DNA of 64,000 nucleotides from a bacterium (GTDB taxonomy: Bacteria > SZUA-182 > DTGQ01): assembly GCA_023512255.1 (NCBI GenBank), contig JAILZY010000010.1:2246-66245 (forward strand), written 5' to 3'. Positions within the stretch are counted from its first letter, which is position 1, and each line of letters begins with the position of its first letter. Both the position numbers and the translations under genes were made by a program. Of this stretch, positions 11,024 through 34,160 are shown in pieces. A model generated the notes under the pieces. It saw nothing but the letters and a program-made list of their open reading frames with translations. It did not search any database and had not been told where the DNA came from.

Positions 11024-12268
11024 ATGCCAGCAGCTAGCCAGCCAAGGTCATTATCCATTCGGATTGGGGAGCGTCTGCCTATGAAGGATCAATCCCTTGA
11101 GATTGTGGAAAAGAAAGGGAAGGGGCACCCTGACTCAATCTGCGACTGTCTGATGGAGGAGGCCTCTTGCGCCTTAGTGCAGCTTTATAAGAAATACACT
11201 GGCCGAATCCTCCACTATAATCTCGACAAGGGGCTGCTATCTGCTGGCCAGGCAGCAGTAGCTTTTGGCGGGGGGAGGATTATCACTCCTCTTCGGATGA
11301 TCATCGGGGATCGGGCCACGCTTCACTACCTTGGGCAGGAGTTGCCGGTCTGGGATACTGTGGTTGAATCAGCCCGCAATTGGATCAGACGAAACCTAAG
11401 ATATTTTGATCCGGATCAGCATATAACTTTCCAAAGCGGCCTTAATCCTGGATCAAGGGAGCTTATGGGTATCTTTACGCCAAGTGAAAGACAGGTGCTC
11501 AAAGCGAATGATACCTCGGCCACCGTAGGATTTGCTCCCTTCACTCCGACTGAAGAGCTGGTCGTCTCGCTAGAGCAGTATCTTACCTCAGTCTGTTTCC
11601 AGGAAAAATTCCCATCTGCTGGTGAAGATATCAAGATCATGGCTGTCCGATCAGATCAAGCGTTAGACCTGACCATTGCCCTGGCTATGGTGGACCGCTT
11701 CATAGCCAGTGAGAGTGACTACTTTGATCAGAAGGAAGCTATAAGACGGTCCATAGCTGACTTTGTCCGCTCCCGCTTTGATGCCTCCCCTTTGCAGATC
11801 CATCTCAATACCCTGGATGAGCGGGGGAGGGGTGAGGATGGAATTTACATTACAGTAACCGGAACATCTGCCGAGCAGGGTGACAGCGGACAGGTTGGTC
11901 GGGGAAACCAGGTGAGCGGCCTTATTTGCCTGATGCGGCCGCAGAGCGGTGAGGCTTCAGCCGGAAAAAATCCCATCAGCCATGTAGGGAAAATTTATAA
12001 TTATCTGGCTCATATATTGGCTGCTGATATTTATCAGCACTTTGAAGAAGCAGGGGAGGTTATGGTTTGGTTAGCCAGCCGAATCGGAGAGCCGATTGAT
12101 CGGCCGGCACTGGTTGCGGTTGAGCTCATTCCCCAGAAGGGGAAGAAGCTGGCTGCTGGCTACCAGAAGGTTATTGCCTGGCGGGTAGAGCAGCATTTGG
12201 AAGGAATTGCCGATCTTTCCCAGAAGCTGATTTTGGGGGAGGTATCTTTATCTCATCTTTCATTCTGA
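11024..12268 (+). CDS. mat: Archaeal-type S-adenosylmethionine synthetase (methionine adenosyltransferase)
   Basis: EIVEKKGKGHPDSICD matches the archaeal MAT N-terminal signature (…EIVERKGLGHPDSICD in Methanococcus). Length about 400 aa, not the bacterial MetK layout. The probable true start is the ATG at 11081 (MKDQSLEIVEKK). Confidence 0.75.
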   Translation: MPAASQPRSLSIRIGERLPMKDQSLEIVEKKGKGHPDSICDCLMEEASCALVQLYKKYTGRILHYNLDKGLLSAGQAAVAFGGGRIITPLRMIIGDRATLHYLGQELPVWDTVVESARNWIRRNLRYFDPDQHITFQSGLNPGSRELMGIFTPSERQVLKANDTSATVGFAPFTPTEELVVSLEQYLTSVCFQEKFPSAGEDIKIMAVRSDQALDLTIALAMVDRFIASESDYFDQKEAIRRSIADFVRSRFDASPLQIHLNTLDERGRGEDGIYITVTGTSAEQGDSGQVGRGNQVSGLICLMRPQSGEASAGKNPISHVGKIYNYLAHILAADIYQHFEEAGEVMVWLASRIGEPIDRPALVAVELIPQKGKKLAAGYQKVIAWRVEQHLEGIADLSQKLILGEVSLSHLSF

Positions 12269-12381: not shown

Positions 12382-14154
12382 ATGAGGAAGGGTATGAAAA
12401 TCGATCTAGGGCCATCAATACCGATCCAGCAATTGTCAAAAGCCATCCATAAGACACCGGAAGAAATTGAAAACTCTCTGCGGGGCAGGGGAAAAGTGCT
12501 CAGAGCTGGAGATGGCCTAAAGGTTGATCAGGCTATCTGGATTGCCGAGCAGGAGGGTTTTAGGGTCAGGATCTTGAGCCGGGGCAAGGAGGAGGCTCTA
12601 TCCATAGAGCCGGAGAAAAAGTCGCTGATTCAGCCTCGGCCTCCGGTTGTAACAGTCATGGGGCATGTGGATCATGGCAAAACCGTTCTCCTTGATGCCA
12701 TTCGGCATACTAACCTGGCTAGCCAGGAGCCGGGTGCTATAACCCAGCATATTGGAGCCTACAAAATTCATTTGCCGGGCGGAGATATTGTCTTTTTGGA
12801 CACTCCTGGACATGAGGCCTTTGCAGCTATGAGGGCCAGAGGTGCCCAGCTGACAGATATTGTGGTCCTGGTTGTGGCCGCGGATGAGGGGGTTAAGCCT
12901 CAGACTATTGAGGCGGTGCAGCATGCCCAGGCGGCACGGGTTCCCATAATCGTAGCTGTGAATAAGATCGACAAGCCCCAAGCCAATCCCGCTCGCGTCA
13001 GGGAGGAGCTAGCTCAATATGGGCTGATCCCTGAGGAGTGGCAAGGTGAGACCATTTATGTGGATATTTCGGCCAAGTATCATCAAAACCTGGATAAGCT
13101 GCTTGAGATGATTTTGCTTTTGTCTGAGATGATGGAACTTAAGGCTGACCAGAGCAGAGCGGCTCGAGGAACGGTTTTAGAAAGTAGAATCGATCCGCAG
13201 CTTGGCCCGACAGCAACCGTCCTGGTTCAGGATGGAACCTTGAGGATTCGGGATTTTTTTGTCTGCGGCCAGACCTTTGGCCGGGTTAGACTAATGATGA
13301 ATGAGTGGGGCAAGCGGATGGAGACAGCTCCTCCTTCGACTCCGGTTCAGATTTCCTCCTTTTCTCAGGTCCCAAGAGCCGGTGATCCCTTTTTGGTTAT
13401 CTCCGGCGAGAAAGAAGCTAGAAAACTGGCTGATCTAATTGGCAGGCAGGAGCAGGGGGCAAAGAGACTAAGACCAAGGCCAACCACTCTGGAGGAGGTT
13501 CAGCGGGAAATCCGAAAGGAGGCCATCCCTGAGCTGCCGATTGTTCTAAAAGTGGATGTTTACGGATCCTTGCAGCCCATTGTTCAGTCTTTGCAGAGCC
13601 TAGCCATCCCTGGGGCCAGGATAACCATAATTCATAGCGGAGTGGGAGCAATCAGCGAATCGGATGTACTCTTGGCCTCAGCGACTTCTGAACGCGGGAT
13701 CATCATCGGCTTTAATGTCAAGCCAGACAGCAAAGCCGAGCTCCTTGCCCGTCAGGAGCGAGTCGACATCCGGCTATACAGTGTCATCTATGATTTGATC
13801 AATGAGGTTAGCAGACTGGCTCAAGGGCTGGTCATTCCCCGCTACCGGGAAGAGATTATTGGCCGGGGTGAGGTGATTCGGGTTTTCCACATTCCCAAGG
13901 TGGGTGTTGTAGCTGGCTGCCTTGTTCAGGAAGGGAAATTTGTCAAGGGCCGCCAGGGTAGAGTGATTCGCCGAGGGATTATTATCCACACCGGTGAGAT
14001 CGTTTCCCTGAAGCACTATGATCAGTTTGTAGATGAAATTGGCCAGGGGAAGACCTGTGGTCTGATGCTATCTCGGGGGTTTACCCGCTATCAGGTCAAG
14101 GATCAGGTTGAAGTTTTTATCAGAGAAGAATTACCCAAAGGAGGAGAAGAGTGA
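12382..14154 (+). CDS. infB: Translation initiation factor IF-2 (short form)
   Basis: G domain [65 protein letters not shown], with downstream IF2 domains colinear with E. coli IF-2. Not flanked by nusA or rbfA in this window. Confidence 0.85.
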
Positions 14155-19958: not shown

Positions 19959-20360
19959 TCAATTTCTCTGGAATATGCCAGAGGCAAAATATCGGTTTTG
20001 GCCTAGAACCTTGGCTACCATAATTTTTAACATCTCAATGTTCAGTGGCTTAGTAATATAATCAAAGGCTCCATCGTGCATAGCCTTGAGATAGGTTTCT
20101 AGCTCGCCAAATCCAGTCATGATAATGAACTGGATATCAGGGTGAAGACTTTTTACCTCGCGCAGCAGCTCTAGTCCTCCCATGCAGGGCATGTTGATGT
20201 CGGTAATGATTAAATCAGGGGTAATCTCACGGACAATCTGCAGGGCTTCGCTTCCATTTTCAGCCACCATCACCTCATATCCCTCATCGGCCAGGATATC
20301 CTGCATAATGCTGCACATATTGGCTTCATCGTCAACAATCAAGATTCGCTTGGTATCCAT
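19959..20360 (-). CDS. Single-domain response regulator receiver (CheY-like)
   Basis: ILIVDDEANMCSIMQDIL...DLIITDINMPCMGGLELLREVK...FDYITKP is a REC domain of 133 aa. Confidence 0.8.
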   Translation of the reverse strand: MDTKRILIVDDEANMCSIMQDILADEGYEVMVAENGSEALQIVREITPDLIITDINMPCMGGLELLREVKSLHPDIQFIIMTGFGELETYLKAMHDGAFDYITKPLNIEMLKIMVAKVLGQNRYFASGIFQRN

Positions 20361-20800
20361 AACGTTAGCCCCTTTGCATTAAGTAAGAATGTAATAGGTA
20401 ATTGGTGGATTTCGCGTCTTTCCCAGTTTTCTTGATTTAAGAAAAGCAAATTGGATGCCAGGATTTTTGAGAGATCAAAAGAGGATGGTTTCCTATATAA
20501 GTCTTTGAAATATAATATTAATAACTCTTAACGCCAGATCTTAAGATCAGGTGAAATTTCGCACAACTCTGACCAAATGTTTATCAATTCGCTCAATCAT
20601 CTATATTACACACTACTAACAGGTCTTTTCGCTAATAAAGTGCACAATAAGGACGAAACAAGGTCCGCTCCTACAATTAGCTTATCTGCCCCTACAATTT
20701 AACGTAATTGATATCCTGATAGCGTAATTTATTCGCTGCGCAACTTGTGTTAAGTACTTAGCAAAAGAACCTCTAAAACACCCTGCTGGTTAGGGGAGGT

Positions 20801-20885
20801 GTCCACTGCCGCCTGTCCACTGCCACCTGCCACTCCTGCCCACTGCCGCCTGCCACTCCTGCTCACTGCCGCCTGCTCACTGCCG
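20801..20885. repeat. Short tandem repeats (12-15 bp units, ccactgccgcctg-like) in an intergenic region
   Basis: gtccactgccgcctg tccactgccacctg ccactcctgcccactgccgcctg ccactcctgctcactgccgcctg ctcactgccg. Confidence 0.6.
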
Positions 20886-20911: not shown

Positions 20912-20937
20912 GGTGGGAGATTTTTGAATCTCCCACC
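20912..20937 (-). terminator. Candidate intrinsic terminator downstream of the 1119-aa gene (ggtgggagat-ttttga-atctcccacc)
   Basis: Perfect 10-bp inverted repeat with a 6-nt loop. On the minus strand it is followed by a moderately T-rich stretch. Confidence 0.4.
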
Positions 20938-21021: not shown

Positions 21022-24000
21022 TCAATGACGATTTGAACTCAATGATGAATAAAGTGATTTATAGAGCCAGTTTGCCCAAAGGTCGTTTGGAGTCCCTGAT
21101 AATGAGAAATTTGAGAGCCCAGGATAAGAGTTTGACAAGTTGTACAGGCCGCTATTAGCGTCATATAACCAGTTGGATAGCCAGTTTGATAGGTTGCTGT
21201 AAGGAGATAGGGAGCTAGTTGATGACCACAAGAAGCTGTACGATGGCCACGAGCTTAAGCTATACGATGGCCACGAGCTTAAGCTGTACGATGGCCACGA
21301 GCTCAAATCATACGAAGCTGGCCACCAGCTTGAGCTATAGGCTGTTCGCCAGTCTGCATCATACAACGACCACCAGTTTGAGCTATACCAAGGCCAGCTC
21401 AAGGCGGGGTAAATCGGCTGAGTGGTAGGAGTAGTAGGGGTAGAAGGAGTAGACGGAGTGGAAGGAGTAGACGGAGGAGAAGAGGGGCCGGCAGGAGCGG
21501 CCTGAGTTTTGAAAGAGCTGGTTCTAGCCGCACTCAGCCGATTGCCGGAAATATCTGTCGCTCCCTCATCAATCTTGATCTGATAAGTAGTGTTTGGGGC
21601 TAGCTTTGACTTTGGGGCCACAAAGGTAATCGAGGTCAGGTCCGGCGATAGCTTGACTGTGAAGTTTGGATCATCCGGGCTGATGGTAACGTTAGCCAGC
21701 AAAGAGGCCCAATCCATCGGCTCACTGAAGGTAACAGTCAGCTCCTGTGATAAGCTGACCTCGGTGGCATTGGGATTGGGCGTAATATTGACCACGATCG
21801 GAGGCGTAATATCTAACCTGCTGACCCCGCTATCTGTGCCAAACCATAAGTTTCCATAGGCATCCTGCTGAATGCACCTTATCTGATCAGTCTGTGAAGA
21901 GGATGGAGTTGTAAGATTAGGAAAGCTTCTCCAGAAATTCCAATCAGTGGTAGCCAAGACCCCAGCATCAGTAGCAAACCAGTACCGCTCGCCCGGATAG
22001 TTTTGGCCAGCTAGGGAATAGATCTCATTGACCGCGCCGTCCAGCGGGGCAGCTATCTTCGACCATCGGCCATTTTGATATCGATACGCGCCTTCTCCGG
22101 TAGCTACCCAAAGGGTGTTTTCCACCGGGTCAAAGGTGAGCGAGTTAATGGTTAGCCCATAGGCGATAAAGGGGAAGAAAGATCTATCCTGGGTTGAGTT
22201 ATAAATCAGTTTACCGGCTGCATTAAATTTATAGATATCCCCCCAGATGGTAGCCAACCAGATATTGCCTTTATCGTCCGGGGCCGCGGCCTTAACCCAA
22301 TTATCGCTTAGACCTGAATTGATGTCGAACACAACTTGCCACTGCTGATCGTACAGCTTGAGGAGGCCATGATTTTGGGTGGCTACCCACACGCCACCGT
22401 TAGGATCAATCGAAAGATCATGAATCGGATCATCAGGCAGCCCGTTTTCTCCCCTGGGGAAGAACTTGACCACTGCCCCCTTGGCTGGATCAAACTTGAC
22501 CACCCCGCTTCCGCCGCTACTGCTGCCGTCTTGTGGCTGAGTGCAGAGCCACAGATACCCTTGCCGATCCACAGCCAGGCGGGTAATGAAATTACTGGGC
22601 AGGCCGTGTTGTACGGTATATGGGTGGCTCATCCAGTCGGTCCAAAAATCAGGCTCTTGTGAATTACCTTGAGTCTTGGGAGCATAGGTGAATAACCCAG
22701 CTCCCAGGGTGGCTATCCAGAGTCTGCCGCTATTGTCCAAGGCAAGATCAGATACTGGCTTATTGATCTGAAAATGGGTCCAGCCCTGATTACATATCAT
22801 GTAGCCGAAATTAGCCTCCAGGCTGTTTGGGGATGCTGCTTGGTCTTTAGCAGTTATTTTAACGAAAATCCACTGATTGTTTTTAAAGGGAATAGCTGGA
22901 GTGTAGGAGATAGTGTATCCCTGCGCATCGGCAGCAGTAATGATTGCTTTGGCGGTTACATCAACTCCATTCACTATAAGTCGCAAGGAGCTTGGATCTA
23001 CTCCTGTTTCAAAATCGCTGACCGTATAGGTAAAGGTAGCCTTGGCCGGGATACAGGATTGGTTAGGAGGGGTAGAGCTGGCTATGAATGGCTTGCAGGA
23101 GTCCTCAGTATAGAGGAAATAGCTGCGTTCTGTCCTATGGCCAGCCTGATCGCTGACCTCAATCCTGATCGGGATAATGGTCGAGCACTCAAAAGGCGTC
23201 TTAGGTTGGTAGCTTAGGGTAAGCCCCTGGGGAGTGTCAGAAATGGTAGCTGCCTCGGTAACGTTTTGCCCATCGACGAAAAACTGGATAGAGGACCTGT
23301 CAAGTTCAGCGAAAAGAGCCTTGATATTCAAAGTAATTTTTGGGCTAGTCGGCACATTCACAGAATTAGGTGCTGGATTTATGGCCTCGATGATAATGGG
23401 CTTGAGAGCCTGGCTGTCTCCTCCAGCAGGTAAGGCTTCACCATTGGCCGCACTACTGCCACCACCAGGGGGGGGGAGGACATTGCTGCCGCCGCTAGCC
23501 GAGCTATCGGATGAGGCGGGAGCACCACCACTAGCGCCACTTCCGCCAGCCGGAAGATCACCGGCTGGTGCGCCGCCGCCAGATCCTGGGCTGCCGCTAT
23601 CAGAGCCTGTTATATTCATCTGGTAGACCTTGGGGATAAATTGGGCAGCCTGATTAAAAGAGATAGCCATTCCATTGCTCAGGGCATCTTTAGTATTATA
23701 GGAATACTGTCTGGCTATCTGATCGTGATACTTTAGGCCGACTGTGGCCCAAGCCCCACGGCTTGAGCGCGTGCTCCCCGTATCCACATCTTTATACTGG
23801 AAGACAATCTCGCCGCTTTCCTCATACAGGATGGCCTCGAAGGTAACGGTATCTGAGCTAATTTCGCCGCTGTAGTGGCGCATGGGAATCTCACGCCACT
23901 CGACAATCAGCCGGGCTGGTTTATTGGCCCTATCGACGAGGTAGCAGATGGTACCTGCGGCCGAGGGGTCAAGATCGGTCCACAGGGGAGCAATAATATC

Positions 24001-24381
24001 ACTGGGATTTCCGGCACGGGCCTTGTTAGGATCGAGCAAATCAGCCAGCGGTTCATTTCCCCACTTGGTAGCATCGTTATTGCCGAAGGTGATATAACCG
24101 TTCGAGGAGATGGTAATTCGAGTCAGCGGCTCCCCGAAGAAATAAAATCGAAATCCAAGGTTTTCAAGATCAATTGATTGACAATCATCATCTCCTAAGG
24201 GCAGAATAACTTTTGCTGGCTGTGACCATACCTCTATCCATTCATATGGATATGGGTTGCTGCCTGCCACTGCTGCCGCCGCAGACTGCACTCCGATTGA
24301 GGAACATCCTAGGGGCAAGCTCCAAAAGAATAGAGTTAAGAGTATGAAACAACAGATATTTTTTAATAATCTAACCTTCAT
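21022..24381 (-). CDS. Large secreted protein: signal peptide, Gly/Ser/Pro linker, Ig-like domains, two-component-regulator-type beta-propeller repeats, PT-rich linker, and a Trp/Tyr/Ser-rich low-complexity C-terminal tail
   Basis: N-terminus MKVRLLKNICCFILLTLFFWSLPLGCSS. Propeller blades LWIATLGAGLFTY, GYLWLCTQ, GGVWVATQNHGLLKL, GNIWLATIWGDIYKF, LWVATGEGAYRY, YWFATDAGVLAT, NLWFGTDSGVSRL. Linker PSTPSTPSTPSTPTTPTT. Tail ...SSWPSYSLSSWPSYSLSSWPSYS... Confidence 0.7.
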   Translation of the reverse strand: MKVRLLKNICCFILLTLFFWSLPLGCSSIGVQSAAAAVAGSNPYPYEWIEVWSQPAKVILPLGDDDCQSIDLENLGFRFYFFGEPLTRITISSNGYITFGNNDATKWGNEPLADLLDPNKARAGNPSDIIAPLWTDLDPSAAGTICYLVDRANKPARLIVEWREIPMRHYSGEISSDTVTFEAILYEESGEIVFQYKDVDTGSTRSSRGAWATVGLKYHDQIARQYSYNTKDALSNGMAISFNQAAQFIPKVYQMNITGSDSGSPGSGGGAPAGDLPAGGSGASGGAPASSDSSASGGSNVLPPPGGGSSAANGEALPAGGDSQALKPIIIEAINPAPNSVNVPTSPKITLNIKALFAELDRSSIQFFVDGQNVTEAATISDTPQGLTLSYQPKTPFECSTIIPIRIEVSDQAGHRTERSYFLYTEDSCKPFIASSTPPNQSCIPAKATFTYTVSDFETGVDPSSLRLIVNGVDVTAKAIITAADAQGYTISYTPAIPFKNNQWIFVKITAKDQAASPNSLEANFGYMICNQGWTHFQINKPVSDLALDNSGRLWIATLGAGLFTYAPKTQGNSQEPDFWTDWMSHPYTVQHGLPSNFITRLAVDRQGYLWLCTQPQDGSSSGGSGVVKFDPAKGAVVKFFPRGENGLPDDPIHDLSIDPNGGVWVATQNHGLLKLYDQQWQVVFDINSGLSDNWVKAAAPDDKGNIWLATIWGDIYKFNAAGKLIYNSTQDRSFFPFIAYGLTINSLTFDPVENTLWVATGEGAYRYQNGRWSKIAAPLDGAVNEIYSLAGQNYPGERYWFATDAGVLATTDWNFWRSFPNLTTPSSSQTDQIRCIQQDAYGNLWFGTDSGVSRLDITPPIVVNITPNPNATEVSLSQELTVTFSEPMDWASLLANVTISPDDPNFTVKLSPDLTSITFVAPKSKLAPNTTYQIKIDEGATDISGNRLSAARTSSFKTQAAPAGPSSPPSTPSTPSTPSTPTTPTTQPIYPALSWPWYSSNWWSLYDADWRTAYSSSWWPASYDLSSWPSYSLSSWPSYSLSSWPSYSFLWSSTSSLSPYSNLSNWLSNWLYDANSGLYNLSNSYPGLSNFSLSGTPNDLWANWLYKSLYSSLSSNRH
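21221..21340. repeat. 24-bp tandem repeat inside the CDS (gatggccacgagcttaagctatac x3 plus degenerate copies), encoding SWPSYSLS units
   Basis: Units at 21242-21265, 21266-21289 and 21290-21313, with degenerate flanks. Confidence 0.8.
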
Positions 24382-24694
24382 AGCGCTTCCTCCCGTTTAC
24401 CTTTGTTTTATTAACTGTTCATTATTTTATTCTTTGTCTATCTAAATTTTTTCTAATATAAATTTTAATCATATTTTTGAGTTTAATCGTATTCAAGTTA
24501 TTTGTACTGAGAGAAATTTCTATCTGGAGTGTTACCAAGGTCTGCGTTAGTGCAAGAGAGGAGTGGTCGGAAAACACCCTGGGGCTTCTGTCCGTCAGAA
24601 ACCCCAGGGTATGCTTGGCAGAATCAGGCCCTTTTAGAGAATGGGTGCCCGCAACTACGACTCAAAAATCGAAAATCAACATCAAGCTCAGTCA

Positions 24695-26965
24695 TTAGAA
24701 TTGATCATGACAAGCCCGGCACATGTTACTGCCCGGTGCTTCCGAATAATTATCCTGAACGAGCAATTGGCCATGTTTGCCTTTCTGTCCTGGAGCGGGA
24801 CGTGGCTCTCCGGTAATGGTTCCATCCCAGGCGGTTGCGGCTGCATGGACATTATGGCAGGTCAGACACAGCACACCATCTGTAGCTGTATTGTTTCCAG
24901 CAGTAATCCCCAGCGGGGAGCCGCTCTTTCCGCCATAAAATTGTTTTGGAAATGCCGTGCAGGTATTGCGTCCATTGGGAACCTTATCAGCTCCAACCGG
25001 ATGAGTCGTCCCCTGAGCCATTGGGTCAGGATTAGTTGCCGTGCAGTGGCATTGCTCGCAGTAGCCATTAGCCTCGTACGGGGAGGCCTTGTCATTTTCG
25101 CTCAACCGATACAAGTAAGGCGGTTTGGTATTGATATGGACATCATGGCAGGTGCCGCAGAAGATCTGTCCATCGACTGTGCCGTAATCATCCATGACTC
25201 CGCCTGCTGAACCAGGCTTGCCATCGGCTTTTAGGAATTTTGGAACACCAACACCTCCGGCGGAAATTATATTCTCGCGGGTATTGAAGCTGACCGGTTT
25301 GCAGGCAAAACGGTGACTTTGCCGACCGGTTGTATTCAGGAGAGAGCCGTTTTTCTCATAACTGCCGACAATATTAGAATTACCATGACAGCCGTAGCAC
25401 ATGGCTTCATAGCGGTCAAGAGGATCGGGTCTTAAGGCAATGTCTCCCTGGCTTCCCCAATTCAGTTCTTTGGCTGGAACCCTCATCAGGGCGTCAATAT
25501 CAGCGCGCAGAGGAGACACAACCTTCATGTCTCTTGGATCATCCTTGTCATTGGAATGGATAAAATGGCAGAACATACAGCCGCCGCATTTAACCACCTT
25601 TTCTCCTCTAGCAGATGTGGCCTTGAAGGTTCTGGTAACCCGGTTCTTCGGATCGGTTCTGGTTTTAAAATGCAGCCCGCCATTGGCTTCAAGCATTGCC
25701 CGGCTTTTCGGATGCTTAGGATCGTTATGGCAATATTCGCACAGGGCAGTATCATCATCTTTAAAAGATGCGTAACGCAGGAAGCTCGGATTGCCCTCTA
25801 TCTCAGAGGTATGGGCTCCGTGGCAAGAGGTGCAGCCGAAGATCTGCTGATCGAAAGAAGCAGAGGAACCATCTGCGTAGGAGCCGTCTAGTTTAAAAAT
25901 AAGACCATTCCCCGGTAGTTTTCCTTCATGGCATCCAGAGACTCCGCAGGAGGTCTTAGCCCACCGCTGGCCCAGTGGGTGGTGAGCACGGTTTGCTTGC
26001 AATTTTGGAGCATTTGGCCAAGTAGTAGTTGACAGGTGGCAGGAGGTACACTTTTGTGATTCATAGATCACACTTGAAGCCCCGGCATTCCTTAATACTG
26101 TCTTGAATCCTGGGTCGGCTGTTCCAAAGGTGAAGACTCCCAGCGGTTCCAGCCTATCGATGAATATCAAAGCATCATTTTCAGGATTTTGAGTATCATG
26201 ATATCCATCATGGGGACGGTGGCAGGCTTCACACTGAGGATCGGTCGCTTCACCAGAGTGGATATGGACGAGGGGCCTACCATTAATGTCTTTGGCCTTG
26301 CTAGCTTTTGGGTGGCATTGGCGGCAGAATTGCCTTCGGTCATGAGTTTCTCCCGCACTGGCAGTTGTTGAATTCAGCCGCAGATAATCACCATGCCCTG
26401 ATTCATCCTTGTTTGGCTGCTTGTGGGGATTGTGGCAGGAGCCGCAATAGAAACCCTCGGTTTTTGAGAAGGGAAAGCCGATAACCTCAGCCTCTCTGCT
26501 TCCATCTCCTTCGGTGGTGCTGATATAGCTGGTTCCTCCATCTGCATTGGGTTGAAATCTGGCCCCCATGACATGGTTGGCACTGCCTCCCAAGAAAACA
26601 TTACCATTGGCATTATTCAGATCACTGAATCTGCCTCCATATTGGCCGGTTCCCTTCATCCGCAACCCAGATTCAATCTGGGGAAAATCTTTATTACCCT
26701 GATAGTGGCAGCTGGCACACAGGTCTTTGACCGTTGTCTGCTTCCCCTGGACTTCTCCTCGTGCCCAGATTCTGGCCCCTTTTCCAGCGTGAGGGATGTG
26801 GCAGTTGGCGCAAACCTGCTTGGTTGATCCTGAGACCTCACACAGGTGCCCGTTGTAGGGTGTTTGCTTTGATCCATCGACTGCGTAAGCTGTGGGGGAA
26901 CAGCAGAACAAGATAAATAGACAAATTCCGAAAAAAGATAGTCTCGCTTTTAGTCTTTTATTCAT
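24695..26965 (-). CDS. Multiheme c-type cytochrome (about 14 CxxCH plus one possible CX4CH), secreted
   Basis: Start chosen at MNKRLKARLSFFGICLFILFCCSPTAYA (signal peptide, GAGAGGGG RBS). The track ORF extends 27 codons further upstream. Heme motifs CANCH, CASCH, CGSCH, CRQCH, CEACH, CTSCH, (CGVSGCH), CTSCH, CEYCH, CMFCH, CYGCH, CGTCH, CEQCH, CLTCH, CRACH. Confidence 0.85.
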   Translation of the reverse strand: MNKRLKARLSFFGICLFILFCCSPTAYAVDGSKQTPYNGHLCEVSGSTKQVCANCHIPHAGKGARIWARGEVQGKQTTVKDLCASCHYQGNKDFPQIESGLRMKGTGQYGGRFSDLNNANGNVFLGGSANHVMGARFQPNADGGTSYISTTEGDGSREAEVIGFPFSKTEGFYCGSCHNPHKQPNKDESGHGDYLRLNSTTASAGETHDRRQFCRQCHPKASKAKDINGRPLVHIHSGEATDPQCEACHRPHDGYHDTQNPENDALIFIDRLEPLGVFTFGTADPGFKTVLRNAGASSVIYESQKCTSCHLSTTTWPNAPKLQANRAHHPLGQRWAKTSCGVSGCHEGKLPGNGLIFKLDGSYADGSSASFDQQIFGCTSCHGAHTSEIEGNPSFLRYASFKDDDTALCEYCHNDPKHPKSRAMLEANGGLHFKTRTDPKNRVTRTFKATSARGEKVVKCGGCMFCHFIHSNDKDDPRDMKVVSPLRADIDALMRVPAKELNWGSQGDIALRPDPLDRYEAMCYGCHGNSNIVGSYEKNGSLLNTTGRQSHRFACKPVSFNTRENIISAGGVGVPKFLKADGKPGSAGGVMDDYGTVDGQIFCGTCHDVHINTKPPYLYRLSENDKASPYEANGYCEQCHCTATNPDPMAQGTTHPVGADKVPNGRNTCTAFPKQFYGGKSGSPLGITAGNNTATDGVLCLTCHNVHAAATAWDGTITGEPRPAPGQKGKHGQLLVQDNYSEAPGSNMCRACHDQF

Positions 26966-27208
26966 CTTTCGATCCCCTCTCTTCCATAAGCACTCTCTCC
27001 CAACCAAGGTTAAATATTGTTTATCACTCGAACCTAACATTAACAAACCACTTTATCACTTTTAAAATCACTTTTAAAATTCTAAAAATTGATCGCTGGT
27101 TAAGTTATCATTATCCCACTCCTTCCCTTAATCCTTATAGAATTATATAGCCGTTTAATATAGCCGTTTATCAATCGCTACCTAAGCTAACGCTTATTTA
27201 AGGCTTAC

Positions 27209-28291
27209 TTATTTAAGATTTGTATCCTTAATGATATAAATCTGATTGACTTCCTGATCAGTCAGGTAAATGGTGTCATCACGGCCAATGAATATTCCAG
27301 TTGGCATCTTGAAATATATTTTGCCCTCTTTTCCATCCAGCCATTTGATTGCACCAATAAATTTTCCATCCGGCCCAAATACCTGGATACACTTCAGTAG
27401 AAGATCGGTTACATAAGCCCGGCCTCGACGGTCGACACCGACTCCTGTCAGCCGAGAGAACTGACCAGCTCTTTCCCCGCTTTCACCTCCAATCTGAAAA
27501 AGCTCAGCTCCATCCGGCTGAAAAACCCGAACCCGGGCGCACATACCTTCAGGAACGAAGATCCGATTCTGATCATCAAAACAGACTATCCCAGGCGTAC
27601 AAAACATACCCTGTTCCTTGCCTTTAAAATAGCGTAAAAATTTGCCATGCAAGTCATAAATCCAGATATGGCCGTTTGAGGCATCACTGACATAAAGCTG
27701 ATTACTCTTTTTATCAATGGCAATACAGCCGGGCGAGGCGTTTTGATATTTGTCATCTGGGGATAGAGCTGATTTAGAGGAAAATTCTTCTACAAACTCA
27801 CCTCGAGGGGTAAAAACCAGGATTTTTTCCCGCTTGACATCACAGATGTATACTTTGTCTTGGCTGTCTATGGCAATGCTGAACGGCTGGAGAAACTGCC
27901 CTGGCCCTTTTCCTTCCTTGCCGAATTTGGATAAGAATTTACCATCACGGCTATAAATCAATACCTCGGAGGGGATATTTTTTAGGACATAGAGATCTCC
28001 TTGGGAATTCTGGACCATATGAATTATAATGCCGCTGCTTTTGCCGCCCACCGCGGCAGATGGTCCGGAATCGCCCATGGTCCCGATCAGCTTAACCGTC
28101 CTGTTTTCAACCTCCTGCTCCACGGTCTGCTCATCGGTGCGGTCGCTTGCTTTTTGTTTAGTCGCTTGCTCGCCGGCTACAGCCTGCTCTTTGGCTTCAG
28201 CCTTGGCCAGCGTAGGCCGTGGAGCAAGCAAAAAGTGGAGCAGCAGACCACTCAGCAGGAAAATCCATAACATGGATGAAGATTTTTTCAT
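27209..28291 (-). CDS. NHL-repeat beta-propeller protein, secreted
   Basis: Signal peptide MKKSSSMLWIFLLSGLLLHFLLAPRPTLA. NHL blades LTGVGVDRRGRAYVTDLLLKCIQVFGPDGKF, GIFIGRDDTIYLTDQEVNQIYII and others. Confidence 0.75.
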   Translation of the reverse strand: MKKSSSMLWIFLLSGLLLHFLLAPRPTLAKAEAKEQAVAGEQATKQKASDRTDEQTVEQEVENRTVKLIGTMGDSGPSAAVGGKSSGIIIHMVQNSQGDLYVLKNIPSEVLIYSRDGKFLSKFGKEGKGPGQFLQPFSIAIDSQDKVYICDVKREKILVFTPRGEFVEEFSSKSALSPDDKYQNASPGCIAIDKKSNQLYVSDASNGHIWIYDLHGKFLRYFKGKEQGMFCTPGIVCFDDQNRIFVPEGMCARVRVFQPDGAELFQIGGESGERAGQFSRLTGVGVDRRGRAYVTDLLLKCIQVFGPDGKFIGAIKWLDGKEGKIYFKMPTGIFIGRDDTIYLTDQEVNQIYIIKDTNLK

Positions 28292-28481
28292 AATTTTTAT
28301 CCCCCTCGAGGTTTTTCCTTTAATCGTAAATCATAAATCATAAATTTCCATTAATCGTAAAGATGGTTTAAGCCGATTTTTAGATTAGAAGCAGAGCGCC
28401 TTTTTGCCCTTGCTGTTTAACCATCACTATTTTTTTACACGTTTCTTTTTACACGAGCTTACACAGCATAACCTACAAAAA

Positions 28482-28497
28482 TGCAAAAGAAGTACCA
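28482..28497 (-). promoter_or_regulatory. Candidate sigma-54 (-24/-12) promoter for the NHL-1/cytochrome-1 module: TGGTAC-ttctt-TTGCa
   Basis: Reverse complement of 28483-28497 gives GG-N10-GC with a TTGCA -12 box, about 190 nt upstream of the NHL-1 start. One deviation from the TGGCAC consensus. Confidence 0.45.
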
Positions 28498-28755
28498 TCC
28501 ATATTTTTAAAGAAGTACCATACATCTTTTTATAGTGTTAAGGCAGATGTCATGTTAAGCCCTAGGAAGCCAATGATCATTTATTTACAAATGATATACT
28601 GTTACATTATAATACGAAAGAAAACCCAATATCAACATCCAGGTTGCGAGGTTGCCGACAAAAAGAAAAGAAAGGGGTTTGTGGCTATTAGACATATATC
28701 GGTCATTTCAACAATAGAATATTACCTGAAAATAGAAATTACCTGGCTGGGACTC

Positions 28756-30816
28756 CTAAAGCATCCCATAATGGCAATTAAAACATAATCCGCTGCCATG
28801 CTCATACACTTGGCCTTGAAAGCTTCCACCAATGGCATTATCAATAATTAAAAGTTTTCCGGCATTTAATCTTCCGCTTTGACTGATACCATCATGCCTA
28901 GTTACGGCTGAATGAACGCTGTGGCAGGACTGACAGGTGATATCTCCCTCCAGGGTATCATTTGATGTTTGCCCGCCAAACCCACCACTGAAGCCTGAGA
29001 TAACATAGCCTTGAAAATTATCGCCAAATTGAACCGATTTTTGCTTCAGAGGCCTGTTGACCGGATGGGAGGATTCGCACTCGGCAGATGCGGGTTTGCT
29101 GGTATGGCAGGCGATGCACAGGGCAGAGCCAGAATAGTCCCGGGTTGCGTTCGGCTCTCGAAGGTAAGCTGTGCGCCGATCAATAAATTTCTCGGAGGAG
29201 CGGATAGGGGGCGAGTCCTGCCGGTGGACATTGTGGCAGCTTCCGCACCAGATTCTCCCTTTCTCGACTCCGTAATCATTCTGACACTTTTTTTCCCAAC
29301 CATCGGAAACAACCTGTTTCCCATCCCCAAAAGGATTAATAATATTGATATTTTTGGAAGGCACTACATTAAACCGATGAGAGAAGTAATGGTCCTCTAC
29401 ATTATCGAGCAGCAGAGCATTTTTTTCATTGTCCGTATCTTTTGCTCCTACGATTTCGGCTCGTGAGTGGCAGCCGTAGCAGGCATCCTCGTAATCACGA
29501 CTATCCTGATCCTGCAATTTGTCAGCCCACTGAAGATTTACTGGTGCAATCCGCATGATCACATCCACCGAAGCAGAGGAATTTTCTTGGTTAGCTCGCT
29601 CATCATCTGTCTGATATAGAGCCGCAGGATCATTCGGTGATTTATGGATAGAGTGGCAGAATAGGCACTCATTTTCATTCTGGGGCGGCCCGATCGTGCG
29701 CCCGACCTGATAATGTCCGCGGCCTGGAGTGGATTCAAGATCACCGACCGCTTTATCAGAATGGCAGGCAGCACAAAAGGCCCCGGGATGAGCCGGATCG
29801 TAGTTGCTGATAATTTGCGGGTTGAGATACTTATCATTAGTGCCCTGATGAGGATCATGGCAGGATTTGCAATACAGCTCTCCCTGAGGGGAGAGTGGGC
29901 CAGATGCGGTCTTCTGATGTCCTTCGACTGTAGCCTCAGCTCCTTTCCCCATCGGGTGGTGCTCATACCGGACCAGGCAATCATCGCCATTCAGCGGAGC
30001 GTTTAGCGCCCCCTCACCCCCCCCTTGAGCTCGATGGCAGCCGTAGCAGCTAGCTGCATAAGAGTCAGCCACAGGATCGGAAAATTCGCTAACATTAGGG
30101 ACTGCTCTGAAGGGGATGCTGCTTTCAGTCTTAATGATCTTTTTCCCTCGATTGGGGGAATAATGCGGAGTATGACAGTCAAAGCAGCCATCTTTGGTTC
30201 CATGCCCCTTGGCCTTACCCTGAACCAGGGGAGCGTGGCATTGGATACAAAATTCATAATGCTTTTGTGAGGTAGTTTTGATTAAACCAGGCACTGACTC
30301 CCGCAGGTAATCGCCCCCCTCAAAGGGATCGGTATGAGGATTATGACAGCTTCCACAATAAAATCCATCTCCTCCCTCCTTAGGCCGCAGGGGAAAGGTT
30401 TCACCCCACTCTTTGCGGGTTACCGCCGGACCATTAATTAGAGCATTGGCTCCCATGGGATGATCATTACCTTCCTCAATGAATATATAATCCCTAGCTC
30501 CGAAAAGATGAGTACCATGACAGGTGCTGCACAGTCTTTTTGTTCCGGTAAACTCACCACTTGCCGCCCTAGCCCACAGAAGGTCATCAGCGGCATGGTG
30601 AGGCAGATGACAGGCTCCGCACGGATCTTCCGGTACACACCAGGCATGAGGCCCATTCAGCGCCCAGGCGAACTGAAAGCCGAAGACGACCAGCAGGAGG
30701 GAAATAATAAGGCCTATTATCCCTTTCGAAATACCTATACCGATTATCCACCGGAGAGCGATTCTCAGAAAACTACTTCGATACATCGAATACTGAAACA
30801 ACTTTTGTCTCCGCAT
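28756..30816 (-). CDS. Multiheme c-type cytochrome (14 CxxCH) with an N-terminal membrane anchor or signal
   Basis: CGACH, CSTCH, CGSCH, CIQCH, CFDCH, CYGCH, CKSCH, CAACH, CLFCH, CYGCH, CGSCH, CIACH, CQSCH, CFNCH. Hydrophobic N-terminus IIGLIISLLLVVFGFQFAWA. Alternative start MYRSS at 30786. The 5' end overlaps the 3' end of NHL-2 by 14-44 nt. Confidence 0.85.
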   Translation of the reverse strand: MRRQKLFQYSMYRSSFLRIALRWIIGIGISKGIIGLIISLLLVVFGFQFAWALNGPHAWCVPEDPCGACHLPHHAADDLLWARAASGEFTGTKRLCSTCHGTHLFGARDYIFIEEGNDHPMGANALINGPAVTRKEWGETFPLRPKEGGDGFYCGSCHNPHTDPFEGGDYLRESVPGLIKTTSQKHYEFCIQCHAPLVQGKAKGHGTKDGCFDCHTPHYSPNRGKKIIKTESSIPFRAVPNVSEFSDPVADSYAASCYGCHRAQGGGEGALNAPLNGDDCLVRYEHHPMGKGAEATVEGHQKTASGPLSPQGELYCKSCHDPHQGTNDKYLNPQIISNYDPAHPGAFCAACHSDKAVGDLESTPGRGHYQVGRTIGPPQNENECLFCHSIHKSPNDPAALYQTDDERANQENSSASVDVIMRIAPVNLQWADKLQDQDSRDYEDACYGCHSRAEIVGAKDTDNEKNALLLDNVEDHYFSHRFNVVPSKNINIINPFGDGKQVVSDGWEKKCQNDYGVEKGRIWCGSCHNVHRQDSPPIRSSEKFIDRRTAYLREPNATRDYSGSALCIACHTSKPASAECESSHPVNRPLKQKSVQFGDNFQGYVISGFSGGFGGQTSNDTLEGDITCQSCHSVHSAVTRHDGISQSGRLNAGKLLIIDNAIGGSFQGQVYEHGSGLCFNCHYGML

Positions 30817-31783
30817 TAACTACATAGATTTTATTGTTTGTCCAGGCCAGACCGAGAGGCTGGCTGAACAGCCTGGGATTGCTCGACTGGCGCATAGAGT
30901 CAAGATATTCCCCCTTCTGGTTGAATACCTGGACCGAATTTGAGATAAAATCAGAAACATAAATCCGATCTCTGGCATCAATAGCCAGGCCATAGGGTCG
31001 AATAAATTCTCCCTCTTTGGTGCCGTTTTTGCCAAAAGCATAGCGAAATTTAAAATCAGGACTAAAAGACTGGACCCTGAAATTACCCGCATCAACGACA
31101 TAAATATTTCCTCGGCTATCGAAAGCAATATGAGCCGGACCGCTCAATCCTCCGTCTCCTCCGCCGGCAGTGCCGAAGGTGGCTTTTAATTCTCCAGAGA
31201 GTGTGTAGACTCCGATCTGGTGATTGCAGGCATCAGAGATATATAGCCGATTATCGAATGGATTGTAAGCGATAAAAGGGGCACAAAGATCGCGGCCTTT
31301 CTCTGGCTGGTGAAGGGGAAATTGCCCTTTAAGTTCGCCATCTGAGCTATAAATCAAAATCTTGTCTGTGGCCAGATCCGATACGTACACCCGATCCTGC
31401 CTGTCAATCGCTATCCCTGACGGCTCGCTCAGGTTTACTCCTTTGCCTTTTCCCTTGCCCTGCTTGGTCGGCTCTTGGCCAAAAGCAAACAGTAGCCGAC
31501 CCGAAGGATCAAATACCCGAATCTCATTGGTCAGCGAGCAGACAACAAAGAGGCGACCTTTGGAATCAAGGGCCAGCGCCGTGGGCTTGCCAGATGCTGG
31601 GCCTTGAAAACCAAGCTGAATCTGCCGCTCAAGCTGATAAAAGCTTTCTTTGCCGGCAGGTTGGCCAGCAGCCAGAGCTGAGCTGCTCAAGAGGAAGAGG
31701 GGAAAAAGCAGCGTCGCCAAGACAGATGCCAGAAAACCTTTTGGATTCAAAATCGGCTGGACAGTCATTATAATAGTCATCAT
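30773..31783 (-). CDS. NHL-repeat beta-propeller protein, secreted
   Basis: Signal peptide; blades GIAIDRQDRVYVSDLATDKILIYSSDGEL, NRLYISDACNHQIGVYTLSGEL, GNIYVVDAGNFRVQSFSPD, DRIYVSDFISNSVQVFNQKGEY, NKIYVVNAETKVVSVFDV. Confidence 0.75.
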   Translation of the reverse strand: MMTIIMTVQPILNPKGFLASVLATLLFPLFLLSSSALAAGQPAGKESFYQLERQIQLGFQGPASGKPTALALDSKGRLFVVCSLTNEIRVFDPSGRLLFAFGQEPTKQGKGKGKGVNLSEPSGIAIDRQDRVYVSDLATDKILIYSSDGELKGQFPLHQPEKGRDLCAPFIAYNPFDNRLYISDACNHQIGVYTLSGELKATFGTAGGGDGGLSGPAHIAFDSRGNIYVVDAGNFRVQSFSPDFKFRYAFGKNGTKEGEFIRPYGLAIDARDRIYVSDFISNSVQVFNQKGEYLDSMRQSSNPRLFSQPLGLAWTNNKIYVVNAETKVVSVFDVSK

Positions 31784-31937: not shown

Positions 31938-31953
31938 AGCAAAAGATGTGCCA
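31938..31953 (-). promoter_or_regulatory. Candidate sigma-54 (-24/-12) promoter for the NHL-2/cytochrome-2 module: TGGCAC-atctt-TTGCt
   Basis: Reverse complement of 31939-31953 is a perfect TGGCAC-N5-TTGC match, about 145 nt upstream of the NHL-2 start codon and immediately downstream of the sigma-54 activator gene. Confidence 0.5.
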
Positions 31954-32173: not shown

Positions 32174-33727
32174 TTAGCTTGGCTCGTCAAGGCCATATCG
32201 TTTGATTTTCTTGTGTAAACCCTGCCTGGTAATCCCAAGCAAAGAGGCTGCTTTGTTCTTATTGCCCTGGGCTTCTTGAAGCGCTTTTCGGATAAGTCTA
32301 ATTTCCAAAGCCTTAACCTGCTCAGGGAGTGAATAATCAACGGCATCTTTCTCATGATCTTGCAGACTCTTGCTGAAATTTTGCAGCTCCCGTGAGCATT
32401 TGTCAATGGTAATTCGCTCCCCCTCAGGAGTTAGCGCAACCAGATGTTCTACCTCCCGCAGCAATTGGCGAACATTGCCCGGCCATGAATACTCCTCAAA
32501 CAGCCGCAAGACTTCAGGCGCAAAGCCAGCTACCCTTTTTTTGAATCTACGGCTTACTCGATCCAGAAAGGCTAAGGCCATAGTTACAATATCCTCCCGC
32601 CGCTCCCTGAGAGGCGGAATGTGGATCTCGACTGAAAACAGACGGAAGAAAAGATCCTCCCTGAAACGCCCCAAGGCCACCTCCTGGCGCAGGTCCTTGT
32701 TGGTTGAGCTGATGATCCGCAGATTATAGCGCATTACCTTGTTGCTTCCCAGCCGACAGCCTTCCCCCTCCTGAATGGCCCGCAAGAACTTAGGCTGAAT
32801 AGCCAGAGGCATATCAGCTACCTCATCCAGAAACAGTGTTCCGCCGTCAGCCTCCTCAAATCGACCCTTGCGGCTGGTAACCGCACCGGTGAACGCCCCT
32901 TTTTCATAGCCAAAGAATTCGCTTTCCATAAGATTTTCGAGAATCGAGGCACAGTTTACAGCCACAAAGGGTTTGTCGCGGCGGTCACTGCCTTCATGGA
33001 TCATTCGAGCAATAAGCTCCTTGCCGGTCCCGTGCTCGCCGTGGATGAAGACATTGACCGGAGTTTTGCTGATCATCCGCACCTCATCCATGATATTTCT
33101 CATAATCGGGCTTTCGACAATAAAGGGTATATCCCGAAAATAATTTCTTTCGAACCACTCGACCTCGCAGTTTAACTGGCTAGAGATTTGCAGAATCTCT
33201 CGGCTTAAAAGGATGCCCTCGATAGAGGTTGCAAGGAAAGAGGCGATTTCCTGCAATTGCTCCACATCTTCTGCGCTAAATCGCCCATCTCCCTTCTTGT
33301 TTAGTACCTCGATGGCTCCGATTACACCACGGCCAGTCAGACTTCTGATCGGAGCACAGATTAGACTGTGGGTAACAAAGCCGGTCTTGGCATCAATTTC
33401 AGTATGGAAACCGTGTCGCTTGTCCAGGTCATGCTCTACAATGCATTGATCGGTAGAGATAACCTTGCCGACAACACTTTCATCTTTGGGAGGCTCAATC
33501 TTCATTCCTTCTAGACCAGTGCCGAACATCGACCAGATTGTCCCCTTTTGTGCATCAGCCACAAAAACAGTGCAGCGTTCGGCATCCATAATTTTGGGCA
33601 GAATGGCTACGTAAAATTTCAGCAGGGCCTCATAATCGCCGACTGTCCAGGATTGGGTAACCTGCTCCAGACGAAATCTAAGGTTGGCAAGTCGCTGATG
33701 AATCATTTCAGGTTCATTGGCAGCCAC
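32174..33727 (-). CDS. Sigma-54-dependent transcriptional activator (bacterial enhancer-binding protein) with an N-terminal GAF sensor domain and a C-terminal Fis-type HTH
   Basis: GAF region ([17 protein letters not shown]..., ...[24 protein letters not shown]). AAA+ sigma-54 interaction domain ([25 protein letters not shown] motif, ...LFFRL..). [24 protein letters not shown]. No REC domain. Confidence 0.85.
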
Positions 33728-34143: not shown

Positions 34144-34160
34144 TGGCATGTGGTTTGCAT
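34144..34160 (+). promoter_or_regulatory. Candidate sigma-54 (-24/-12) promoter facing the giant gene: TGGCAT-gtggt-TTGCAT
   Basis: GG-N10-GC spacing with a TTGCA -12 box. Divergent from the sigma-54 activator gene. About 500 nt upstream of the giant CDS and about 20 nt upstream of a small ORF. Confidence 0.45.

Follow-up and report, generated by a model that had tools for sequence, protein, structure and literature searches.

A tryptophan-rich low-complexity C-terminal tail on a putatively exported Ig/propeller protein encoded beside multihaem cytochromes

The C-terminal signals of PEP-CTERM, LPXTG, GlyGly-CTERM/rhombosortase and type IX secretion system (T9SS) proteins sit at the extreme C-terminus of secreted multidomain proteins, behind a Pro/Thr-rich linker, and the same layout is found in a 1119-residue protein encoded on the reverse strand, at 21022-24381, of the stretch of DNA analysed here (the window; 64,000 nucleotides of contig JAILZY010000010.1, bacterial assembly GCA_023512255.1). 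Its last 132 residues form an aromatic low-complexity tail which, unlike those signals, carries none of their motifs and has no transmembrane (TM) helix, basic cluster, folded C-terminal domain (CTD) or hidden Markov model (HMM) match; it is also 5-6 times longer and variable in length, and no cognate enzyme is encoded nearby. Folded domains followed by a PT linker and an aromatic C-terminal module are likewise the classic arrangement of proteins with a carbohydrate-binding module (CBM). As in these proteins and in ESV1/LESV (PMC10219597), an aromatic-rich module dominated by Trp and Tyr follows a linker in the window protein, but the CBM and ESV1/LESV modules are folded and conserved in sequence, and acidic in the case of ESV1/LESV, whereas the tail is nearly uncharged, fast-evolving and without a family. 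In the literature we found no precedent for a Trp-rich bacterial C-terminal tail, the plant ESV1/LESV proteins being the sole relevant analogue. A further comparison is offered by the eukaryotic prion-like 'sticker-and-spacer' low-complexity domains of FUS and hnRNPA1. Judged from sequence alone, the tail resembles them in being uncharged, rich in Ser/Asn/Gly and predicted to be disordered, with evenly spaced aromatics and a composition conserved beyond its sequence, but it is bacterial and extracytoplasmic, Trp rather than Tyr/Phe is a major sticker (11%), and the window tail itself is Leu-rich and poor in Gly and Gln. Disordered low-complexity tails and linker/binding-module layouts are familiar, so the tail is not categorically new; at the same time, no described family includes it and it is exceptionally rich in Trp. 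Low-complexity sequence with much Trp is very rare, and here it is kept in every member of a small family that is always linked to putative extracellular-electron-transfer genes.

The folded part of the protein and its surroundings also have described counterparts. The best Foldseek matches of its propeller in the PDB are the extracellular domains of the Bacteroides hybrid two-component sensors BT3049, BT4663 and BT4673 (E ~1e-12), which combine Reg_prop and Ig-like domains, and the NCBIfam model of the T9SS protein PorZ matched weakly in the Ig/propeller region (residues 499-674; 38 bits against a cut-off of 260). The window protein has no TM segment, kinase or receiver domain, and with a single matching module the TM-scores of the whole model stay low (0.15-0.23). 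We know of no aromatic low-complexity tail on these sensors or on PorZ. NHL-repeat proteins beside multihaem cytochromes have been recognised in proposed extracellular-electron-transfer clusters, the Uet cluster of Tenderiales and Gallionella (PMC10734462) and DFE_0448-0465 of Desulfovibrio ferrophilus (PMC9769857), and in gene content the locus resembles both. Neither a porin nor a peptidyl-prolyl isomerase, nor any further component of Uet type, was seen in the cluster here, and no Ig/propeller protein with an aromatic tail has been reported from either cluster.

A conserved aromatic tail with no predicted fold and no known sorting signal

The tail, delimited by its composition (residues 988-1119, 21025-21420; all features of this gene lie on the reverse strand), contains 39 Ser, 18 Leu, 15 Trp, 14 Tyr, 11 Asn, 10 Pro and 8 charged residues. 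At a rate of 0.022, the probability of at least 15 Trp in 132 residues is 2.6e-7, and a search of all six reading frames found no comparable aromatic stretch elsewhere in the window. The preceding Pro/Thr/Ser linker (residues 961-987, 21421-21501) is encoded by 9-bp tandem repeats (Tandem Repeats Finder: 21427-21482, period 9, 6.2 copies). The original prediction, made from the letters of the window, had described a Trp/Tyr/Ser low-complexity tail of about 130 residues after a PT-rich linker, and this description holds.

A search of 5.8 billion clustered proteins returned only three full-length homologues: P0001 (63% identity to the window protein; NCBI metagenome-assembled genome (MAG) GCA_040755755.1) and the tandem paralogues P0002 (48%) and P0003 (55%), which share one ENA contig. 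A metagenome scan added a close homologue, L039 (97%), from JGI project Ga0078972, a Yellowstone metagenome according to a paper, as well as a second copy of the P0002/P0003 locus, L040; a GTDB genome scan with the full-length alignment found N-terminal NIDO-like matches in many phyla and no full-length orthologue. All five family members end in a Thr/Pro linker and a Trp/Tyr/Ser/Asn(/Gly) tail of 89-132 residues, of which 1-8 are charged. The exact window protein is also encoded on the independently assembled Logan contig SRR15214128, and reading frame and stop codon are identical in this assembly and in that of JGI Ga0078972. A tail missing from orthologues or owed to a frameshift would have refuted the original prediction; every homologue carries it, the same frame and stop recur in independent assemblies and the ratio of non-synonymous to synonymous substitution rates (dN/dS) is below 1, which together rule out a frameshift or assembly artefact.

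Conservation is concentrated at the two ends of the tail. Most copies begin with S-W-[PW]-W, the middle aligns poorly, and the end keeps the pattern G-T..[LVT]-W-[SA]-[NS]-W-[LP], which in the alignments of homologues corresponds to GTPNDLWANWL in the window protein (residues 1096-1106, 21064-21096). Five tail Trp are invariant (W996, W1052, W1067, W1102 and W1105); within the terminal motif, G1096 is shared by the five sequences, as are W1102 and W1105, and T1097 is constant in the alignment of four. The last residues differ, from ...SLSSNRH in the window to ...GAN and ...SAH in two homologues and ...LWSSWP in P0001. Compared with the 97% identical homologue, dN/dS is 0.37 for the tail, the highest of all parts other than the signal peptide, 0.14 for the folded body and 0.05, the lowest value, for the propeller. 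These ratios indicate probable relaxed purifying selection on the tail in this frame. A tail that is constrained and yet relaxed is as expected for a disordered region selected for its composition.

Length variation was also anticipated by the original prediction, which held that 24-bp repeats make the tail mutable, and here it proved right: when the window and L039 are aligned as DNA, the 3' part of the gene differs by exactly two indels, both in frame and both inside tandem arrays. L039 has one 24-bp SSWPSYSL unit fewer in the tail and 27 bp more in the linker, that is, three extra 9-bp STP units. The prediction was less accurate on the repeats themselves, which it placed at 21242-21313 and took to encode the tail. 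Exact mapping puts the three near-perfect 24-bp units (SSWPSYSL, SSWPSYSL and SSWPSYSF, residues 1027-1050) at 21232-21303, a shift of 10 bp, with Tandem Repeats Finder reporting 21233-21339 (period 24, 4.3 copies); since the near-perfect units account for no more than 24 of the tail's 132 residues, the whole tail is not encoded by 24-bp tandem repeats. Nor is length variation restricted to the tail, because a 12-residue in-frame insertion in a (GSGTGT)n propeller loop distinguishes P0002 from its copy in L040 (10001-13153), a second assembly of that paralogue. Such in-frame repeat variation is a usable strain-level marker.

By composition the tail seeks interfaces without being a membrane span. 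Summing Wimley-White interfacial free energies over the tail gives -28 kcal/mol, or -0.21 per residue where the remainder of the protein averages +0.15; the homologous tails range from -11 to -26 kcal/mol, and single 19-residue windows of the tail equal the core of the signal peptide in favourability. No TM helix was found, the highest 19-residue Kyte-Doolittle mean in the tail being 0.04. In the full-length AlphaFold2 model, residues 963-1119 have a predicted local distance difference test score (pLDDT) of about 20 and neither strands nor other secondary structure, and the tail modelled alone reached a mean pLDDT of 36.5 and a predicted TM-score of 0.19, with weak helices (pLDDT <50) at LSNWLSNWLY and DLWANWLYKSLY (tail residues 73-89 and 111-129). 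The structure prediction proposed by the original prediction thus returned no fold for the tail. A folded domain was considered and set aside: neither AlphaFold2 run gave confident tail structure and a PDB profile search with the tail found no match.

Known sorting and surface-binding signals were searched for individually. With the tail alone, Pfam at E ≤ 10 gave only a chance match to SHIPPO-rpt (E 1.2), and NCBIfam, run on the five tails at E ≤ 10 and on the full protein at E ≤ 1, matched no sorting-signal model. The PEP motif, TM helix and Arg-rich cluster of PEP-CTERM are absent from the tail, as are the LPXTG motif, its TM helix and any NCBIfam match to that class. There is no Pfam or NCBIfam match to the T9SS CTD, a folded beta-sandwich of about 80 residues, and no strand in the tail; likewise, a beta-barrel or autotransporter C-terminus is not seen, as the window protein ends in ...NRH and AlphaFold2 places no strands in the tail. 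No family HMM of CBMs, WxL, choline-binding/CW_binding, LysM or SLH domains matched. Hydropathy, Pfam and NCBIfam therefore agree with the earlier statement that the protein has no TM helix and no PEP-CTERM, LPXTG or Por-type signal. When a profile of four tails was compared with 1.84 billion representative proteins, no word index being used, it picked up P0003 and P0001 and nothing outside the family, and the tail is therefore not a widely shared module or sorting tag at a level detectable by HMMER; a word-indexed search with the tail alignment gave no match at E ≤ 10 but missed its own family too, probably through bias filtering, and is uninformative. As HMMER with bias filters is blind to such features, tails of this kind are probably under-counted.

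Possible roles of the tail

The reading that we tentatively prefer, at somewhat short of an even chance, is that of a disordered, multivalent aromatic retention tail on a Sec-exported modular surface or extracellular protein, acting non-covalently and without sortase-like processing. The flexible Pro/Thr linker would tether the folded NIDO/Ig/propeller part to the disordered, nearly uncharged tail, in which Trp, Tyr and Leu 'stickers' would stand at even spacing between Ser, Asn and Pro 'spacers', and many weak aromatic contacts (pi-pi, CH-pi and interfacial hydrophobic) would keep the protein on a surface. The likeliest target would be the envelope or matrix of the cell itself, whether polysaccharide or the lineage's Tyr/Gly-rich secreted proteins described below. 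Selection would keep the composition of the tail rather than its exact sequence, and a tail selected in this way would evolve fast and change its length by slippage of the 24-bp and 9-bp repeats. The analysis shows the anatomy, conservation, length variability and physicochemical character of the tail; the retention or adhesion role, the target and any coupling to the neighbouring NHL/multihaem-cytochrome genes are what we infer.

The reading is supported by the conservation of the tail in the family, its dN/dS, the position of the indels at the tandem repeats, the lack of a predicted fold and of matching models, the outer membrane implied by a relative's TamB (below) and the physical character of the tail. 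It shows low complexity, few charges, polar spacers and a pLDDT of about 20-37, and its aromatics are evenly spaced, as they are in two further tails: the fraction of shuffled sequences with a gap variance no larger than that observed is 0.0035 for the window tail, 0.001 for P0001 and 0.0015 for the tail of an unrelated protein of the same lineage. Few charges, polar spacers, even aromatics, no fold, fast turnover and conserved composition are together a sticker-and-spacer low-complexity signature. The unrelated protein, of 1159 residues with LVIVD, CHB_HEX_C and Fn3_assoc domains, is the convergent neighbour of P0002 (L040 13383-16862, reverse strand, the same as L004 13347-16958) and ends in a Thr/Pro/Gln linker and a 171-residue uncharged Ser/Tyr/Gly/Leu/Phe tail (...SSPLLSLPYLY). 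Other aromatic secreted proteins occur in related genomes. That of P0001 encodes a 341-residue signal-peptide protein of YSTYGSYSP and GGLY repeats (L076 15298-16323, forward strand) and a GGLY-repeat secreted protein (L076 13754-14422, reverse strand), and GCA_049472445.1 encodes two more that are rich in Gly/Tyr/Phe (L075 15004-15579, forward strand, and 5012-5785, reverse strand). None of these small proteins matched Pfam; they resemble structural or matrix proteins in their repeats and composition, and they suggest that aromatic low-complexity sequence may be a recurrent exterior building material of the lineage.

Several points weigh against a retention tail. The aromatic spacing in the P0002 and P0003 tails is not significantly even when compared with shuffles, and the tandem repeat itself accounts for part of the even spacing in the window tail. 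The proteins that we compare across the lineage share composition, not homology, in a sample of about 170 kb. The tail dN/dS rests on few substitutions (6.5 synonymous and 9.5 non-synonymous). As the AlphaFold2 runs used an alignment of four sequences, the lack of a fold is absence of evidence for one and not proof of disorder, and folding on binding or in an oligomer would be compatible with the models; indeed, the Trp-rich domains of ESV1/LESV fold into beta-sheets (PMC10219597). The binding partner of the tail is one that we infer, and the conserved motif near the end might serve as a specific recognition signal instead.

The alternative that stands best beside this reading, unlikely though we hold it, is a specific carbohydrate-binding surface that would become ordered on contact with an insoluble glycan, its aromatic strips stacking on the sugar rings. 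The CBM-like layout of folded domains, PT linker and aromatic C-terminal module agrees with it, Trp-rich C-terminal regions are documented as atypical glucan binders (PMC10219597) and the adjoining Reg_prop propeller resembles the glycan-sensing domains of BT4663 type, but no CBM or other Pfam model matches the tail and the cluster has no extracellular glycan-processing genes. The ESV1/LESV domains, moreover, are acidic, strongly conserved in sequence and confidently predicted, none of which applies to the tail.

A peripheral membrane anchor, with Trp, Tyr and Leu in the leaflet interface and LSNWLSNWLY and DLWANWLYKSLY as in-plane amphipathic helices, appears a little less likely again. The interfacial energy is favourable without TM hydropathy, it is negative in all homologues, and the weak helices of the tail modelled alone fall exactly on these two segments. 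However, the maximum helical hydrophobic moment of 0.43-0.51 does not exceed that of shuffled tails (a fraction of 0.11-0.78 of the shuffles equals or surpasses it), so that a defined amphipathic-helix anchor is unsupported; the helices have pLDDT <50, and P0001 ends in ...LWSSWP without the longer of the two segments. In this reading the candidate helices would resemble the Trp-rich membrane-proximal region of HIV gp41 or the C-terminal helix of PBP5.

We rate lower still the proposal that the tail is a lineage-specific C-terminal sorting or attachment tag, whose motifs (S-W-[PW]-W and G-T..W-[SA]-[NS]-W-[LP]) would be recognised by a dedicated machinery that exports, cleaves or attaches the protein. 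Like the signals of many sorted proteins, the tail stands at the very C-terminus behind a Pro/Thr linker, both of its ends keep short motifs while the middle diverges, and the neighbouring LVIVD protein has a similar linker and a tail of similar composition. That tail, however, has no W-x-x-W motif, and the profile search found the window tail only within its five-member family. A tail of 89-132 residues and variable length far exceeds known signals; TM helix and basic cluster are both lacking, and at E ≤ 10 it matched none of the NCBIfam sorting models. The annotated open reading frames (ORFs) of the window and the homologous loci include no gene for a sortase, exosortase, rhombosortase or T9SS component. 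The original prediction had suggested that the tail might be a sorting tag, shared with other proteins and served by its own sortase or exosortase; a tail profile confined to one family, the lack of an enzyme among the annotated ORFs and the fact that the analogues in the lineage match in composition only weaken that suggestion.

An improbable but far-reaching extension is a lineage 'matrix code', in which the W/Y/S tails, the LVIVD tail and the YSTYGSYSP/GGLY proteins would co-assemble through their aromatic low-complexity regions into an extracellular layer or condensate, the tail plugging the Ig/propeller protein into it beside the 14-haem cytochromes. In such a layer, the closely packed Trp and Tyr residues might in addition undergo oxidative cross-linking or act as a relay for redox hopping. 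If true, this would give bacteria a new means of building and populating a cell surface that does not depend on sortase. Equally improbable is a functionless tail, a tolerated by-product of 3' repeat expansion and a spacer at most, for although the DNA is repeat-rich, strains differ in length, dN/dS is the highest outside the signal peptide and distant homologues align poorly, the composition, invariant Trp and terminal motif were kept while the folded domains diverged to about 50-63% identity, two tandem paralogues included, Trp is the costliest and rarest residue, and dN/dS is below 1. If the tail is indeed a retention device, it would represent a composition-encoded, enzyme-independent mode of surface retention, beside the motif-encoded sorting signals, and a rare bacterial extracellular case of sticker-and-spacer behaviour.

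Domain layout and gene neighbourhood

The protein was taken from the ORF list (ATG start; stop codon at 21022-21024). Its first 35 residues or so (24277-24381) resemble a signal peptide of Sec type, with a basic n-region (MKVRLLKN), a hydrophobic core and an Ala-rich cleavage region; the homologues have AxA-type sites, and outside the tail the strongest Wimley-White hydrophobic windows are those of residues 1-18. We regard this segment as a putative Sec signal peptide. It is followed by a NIDO-like beta domain (about residues 45-245, 23647-24249), which falls below the Pfam threshold (residues 44-248 scanned alone against NIDO, PF06119: E 8.7e-5, 23.0 bits, cut-off 25) and is the most widely shared part of the protein, homologous domains being present in many secreted proteins, several of them with PF06119. 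A Gly/Ser/Ala/Pro-rich linker of low pLDDT (about 23-27), which differs in length among homologues (residues 251-327, 23401-23631), leads to two immunoglobulin (Ig)-like domains of Big_5 type (residues 328-532, 22786-23400; two Pfam stretches), a Reg_prop beta-propeller (residues 533-856, 21814-22785; five Pfam stretches) and a third Big_5 domain (residues 857-959, 21505-21813; profile positions 1-105 of 105). Reg_prop (E 1.4e-24, 83.4 bits, gathering cut-off 20.4) and Big_5 (E 1.6e-23, 83.8 bits, gathering cut-off 23.6) are both above threshold, and in the full-length model the Ig-like and propeller modules reach pLDDT of 70-86, the beta-sandwich segments of the first two Ig-like domains having 66-86. 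ORF, Pfam domains and N-terminus are thus in line with the secreted propeller/Ig protein of 1119 residues that had been described at the outset.

Upstream lies a conserved module on the same strand (24695-31783; Pfam), which comprises NHL-2 (30773-31783), 14-haem cytochrome 2 (28756-30816), NHL-1 (27209-28291) and 14-haem cytochrome 1 (24695-27046), each cytochrome having 14 CXXCH motifs, and it is headed by a GAF-domain sigma-54 activator (32174-33727, reverse strand; Pfam). The window, L039 and the P0001 genome share the order GAF sigma-54 activator, NHL, 14-haem cytochrome, NHL, 14-haem cytochrome and, last, the tail gene, and on the P0002/P0003 contig two multihaem cytochrome genes precede both paralogues.

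The 313-bp spacer between cytochrome 1 and the tail gene contains a terminator-like hairpin followed by UGUUUU (24574-24612, reverse strand; RNA fold -31.4 kcal/mol, z -6.4) and then an AT-rich stretch with a sigma-70-like match, TTGAAT and TATGAT separated by 17 nt (24468-24496, reverse strand), which is a consensus match only (9 of 12 positions). The same hairpin recurs at the corresponding place in the locus of P0001 (L002, 9469-9502), and a ribosome-binding site, GGGAGG, directly precedes the ATG. Because a conserved hairpin and a sigma-70-like match of its own stand between the tail gene and the module, simple co-transcription is unlikely, and a separate transcription unit or regulated read-through fits better. 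Of the earlier proposal on this gene, its place directly downstream of NHL-1 and cytochrome 1 stands, the linkage being conserved in all genomes seen, whereas co-transcription with them is doubtful. A sigma-54 promoter directly upstream of the tail gene was sought by pattern search and not found. Both NHL genes are preceded by sigma-54 -24/-12 matches on the reverse strand (31938-31953, perfect; 28482-28497, one mismatch), and further such matches with 0-1 mismatch lie at 20445-20460 (reverse strand), before an orphan response-regulator gene, and at 34144-34159 (forward strand), before a cohesin/dockerin gene. By their positions alone the four sites suggest a possible regulon under the GAF activator, the window-wide match count being not above chance.

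Past the tail gene, 85 bp beyond its stop codon, a hairpin, GGTGGGAGATT-CAAA-AATCTCCCACC (20912-20937, reverse strand), is identical in L039; with its weak T-tail and a partial-fold z of only -1.75 it is a possible terminator. The intergenic region that separates the 3' end of the tail gene from the orphan response-regulator gene (19959-20360, reverse strand) also holds a GGCAGTG-rich tandem array (20803-20885; 23-bp unit, three copies, 91% matches), identical in L039, which may be a regulator-binding array; the sigma-54-like match at 20445-20460 lies downstream of it.

The lineage and other genes of the window

Translation initiation factor IF-2 of the window falls into a close cluster of some ten sequences with 68-98% identity, others (Nitrospirota, Firmicutes and more) being mostly below 50% and at most about 55% identical, which places the organism in a deep-branching, uncultivated lineage. 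This IF-2 (12382-14154, forward strand) is of a short form without the usual N-terminal domain, and PF04760 is absent across the whole clade. A relative encodes TamB, which implies an outer membrane, and the lineage appears to be diderm. According to the literature, JBLIRT is a MAG of mangrove/mudflat origin. Neither rRNA nor any other RNA was detected in the window by Rfam. The S-adenosylmethionine synthetase (11024-12268, forward strand) is of the PF01941 type, which we take to be the archaeal form.

Two genes, a fused alpha-amylase-family/maltokinase-cap gene similar to TreS-Mak (4646-7987, forward strand) and a branching-enzyme-like gene with CBM_48 and alpha-amylase domains (8158-10164, forward strand), look like a cytoplasmic alpha-glucan pathway unconnected to the tail. 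Divergent from the sigma-54 activator gene, a 2059-residue protein (34675-40854, forward strand) carries cohesin (two stretches) and a type I dockerin, with traces of HYR and PD40; a relative, L074, also encodes a dockerin-bearing protein. A 787-residue protein at 57988-60351 (forward strand) has a signal-peptide-like N-terminus, is rich in Pro, Asp and Cys and has no Pfam match at E ≤ 0.01. Finally, a 1044-residue protein (42402-45536, forward strand) is a sulfatase fused to a long TPR array, and a similar fusion is encoded in the P0001 genome (L076 21575-21770).

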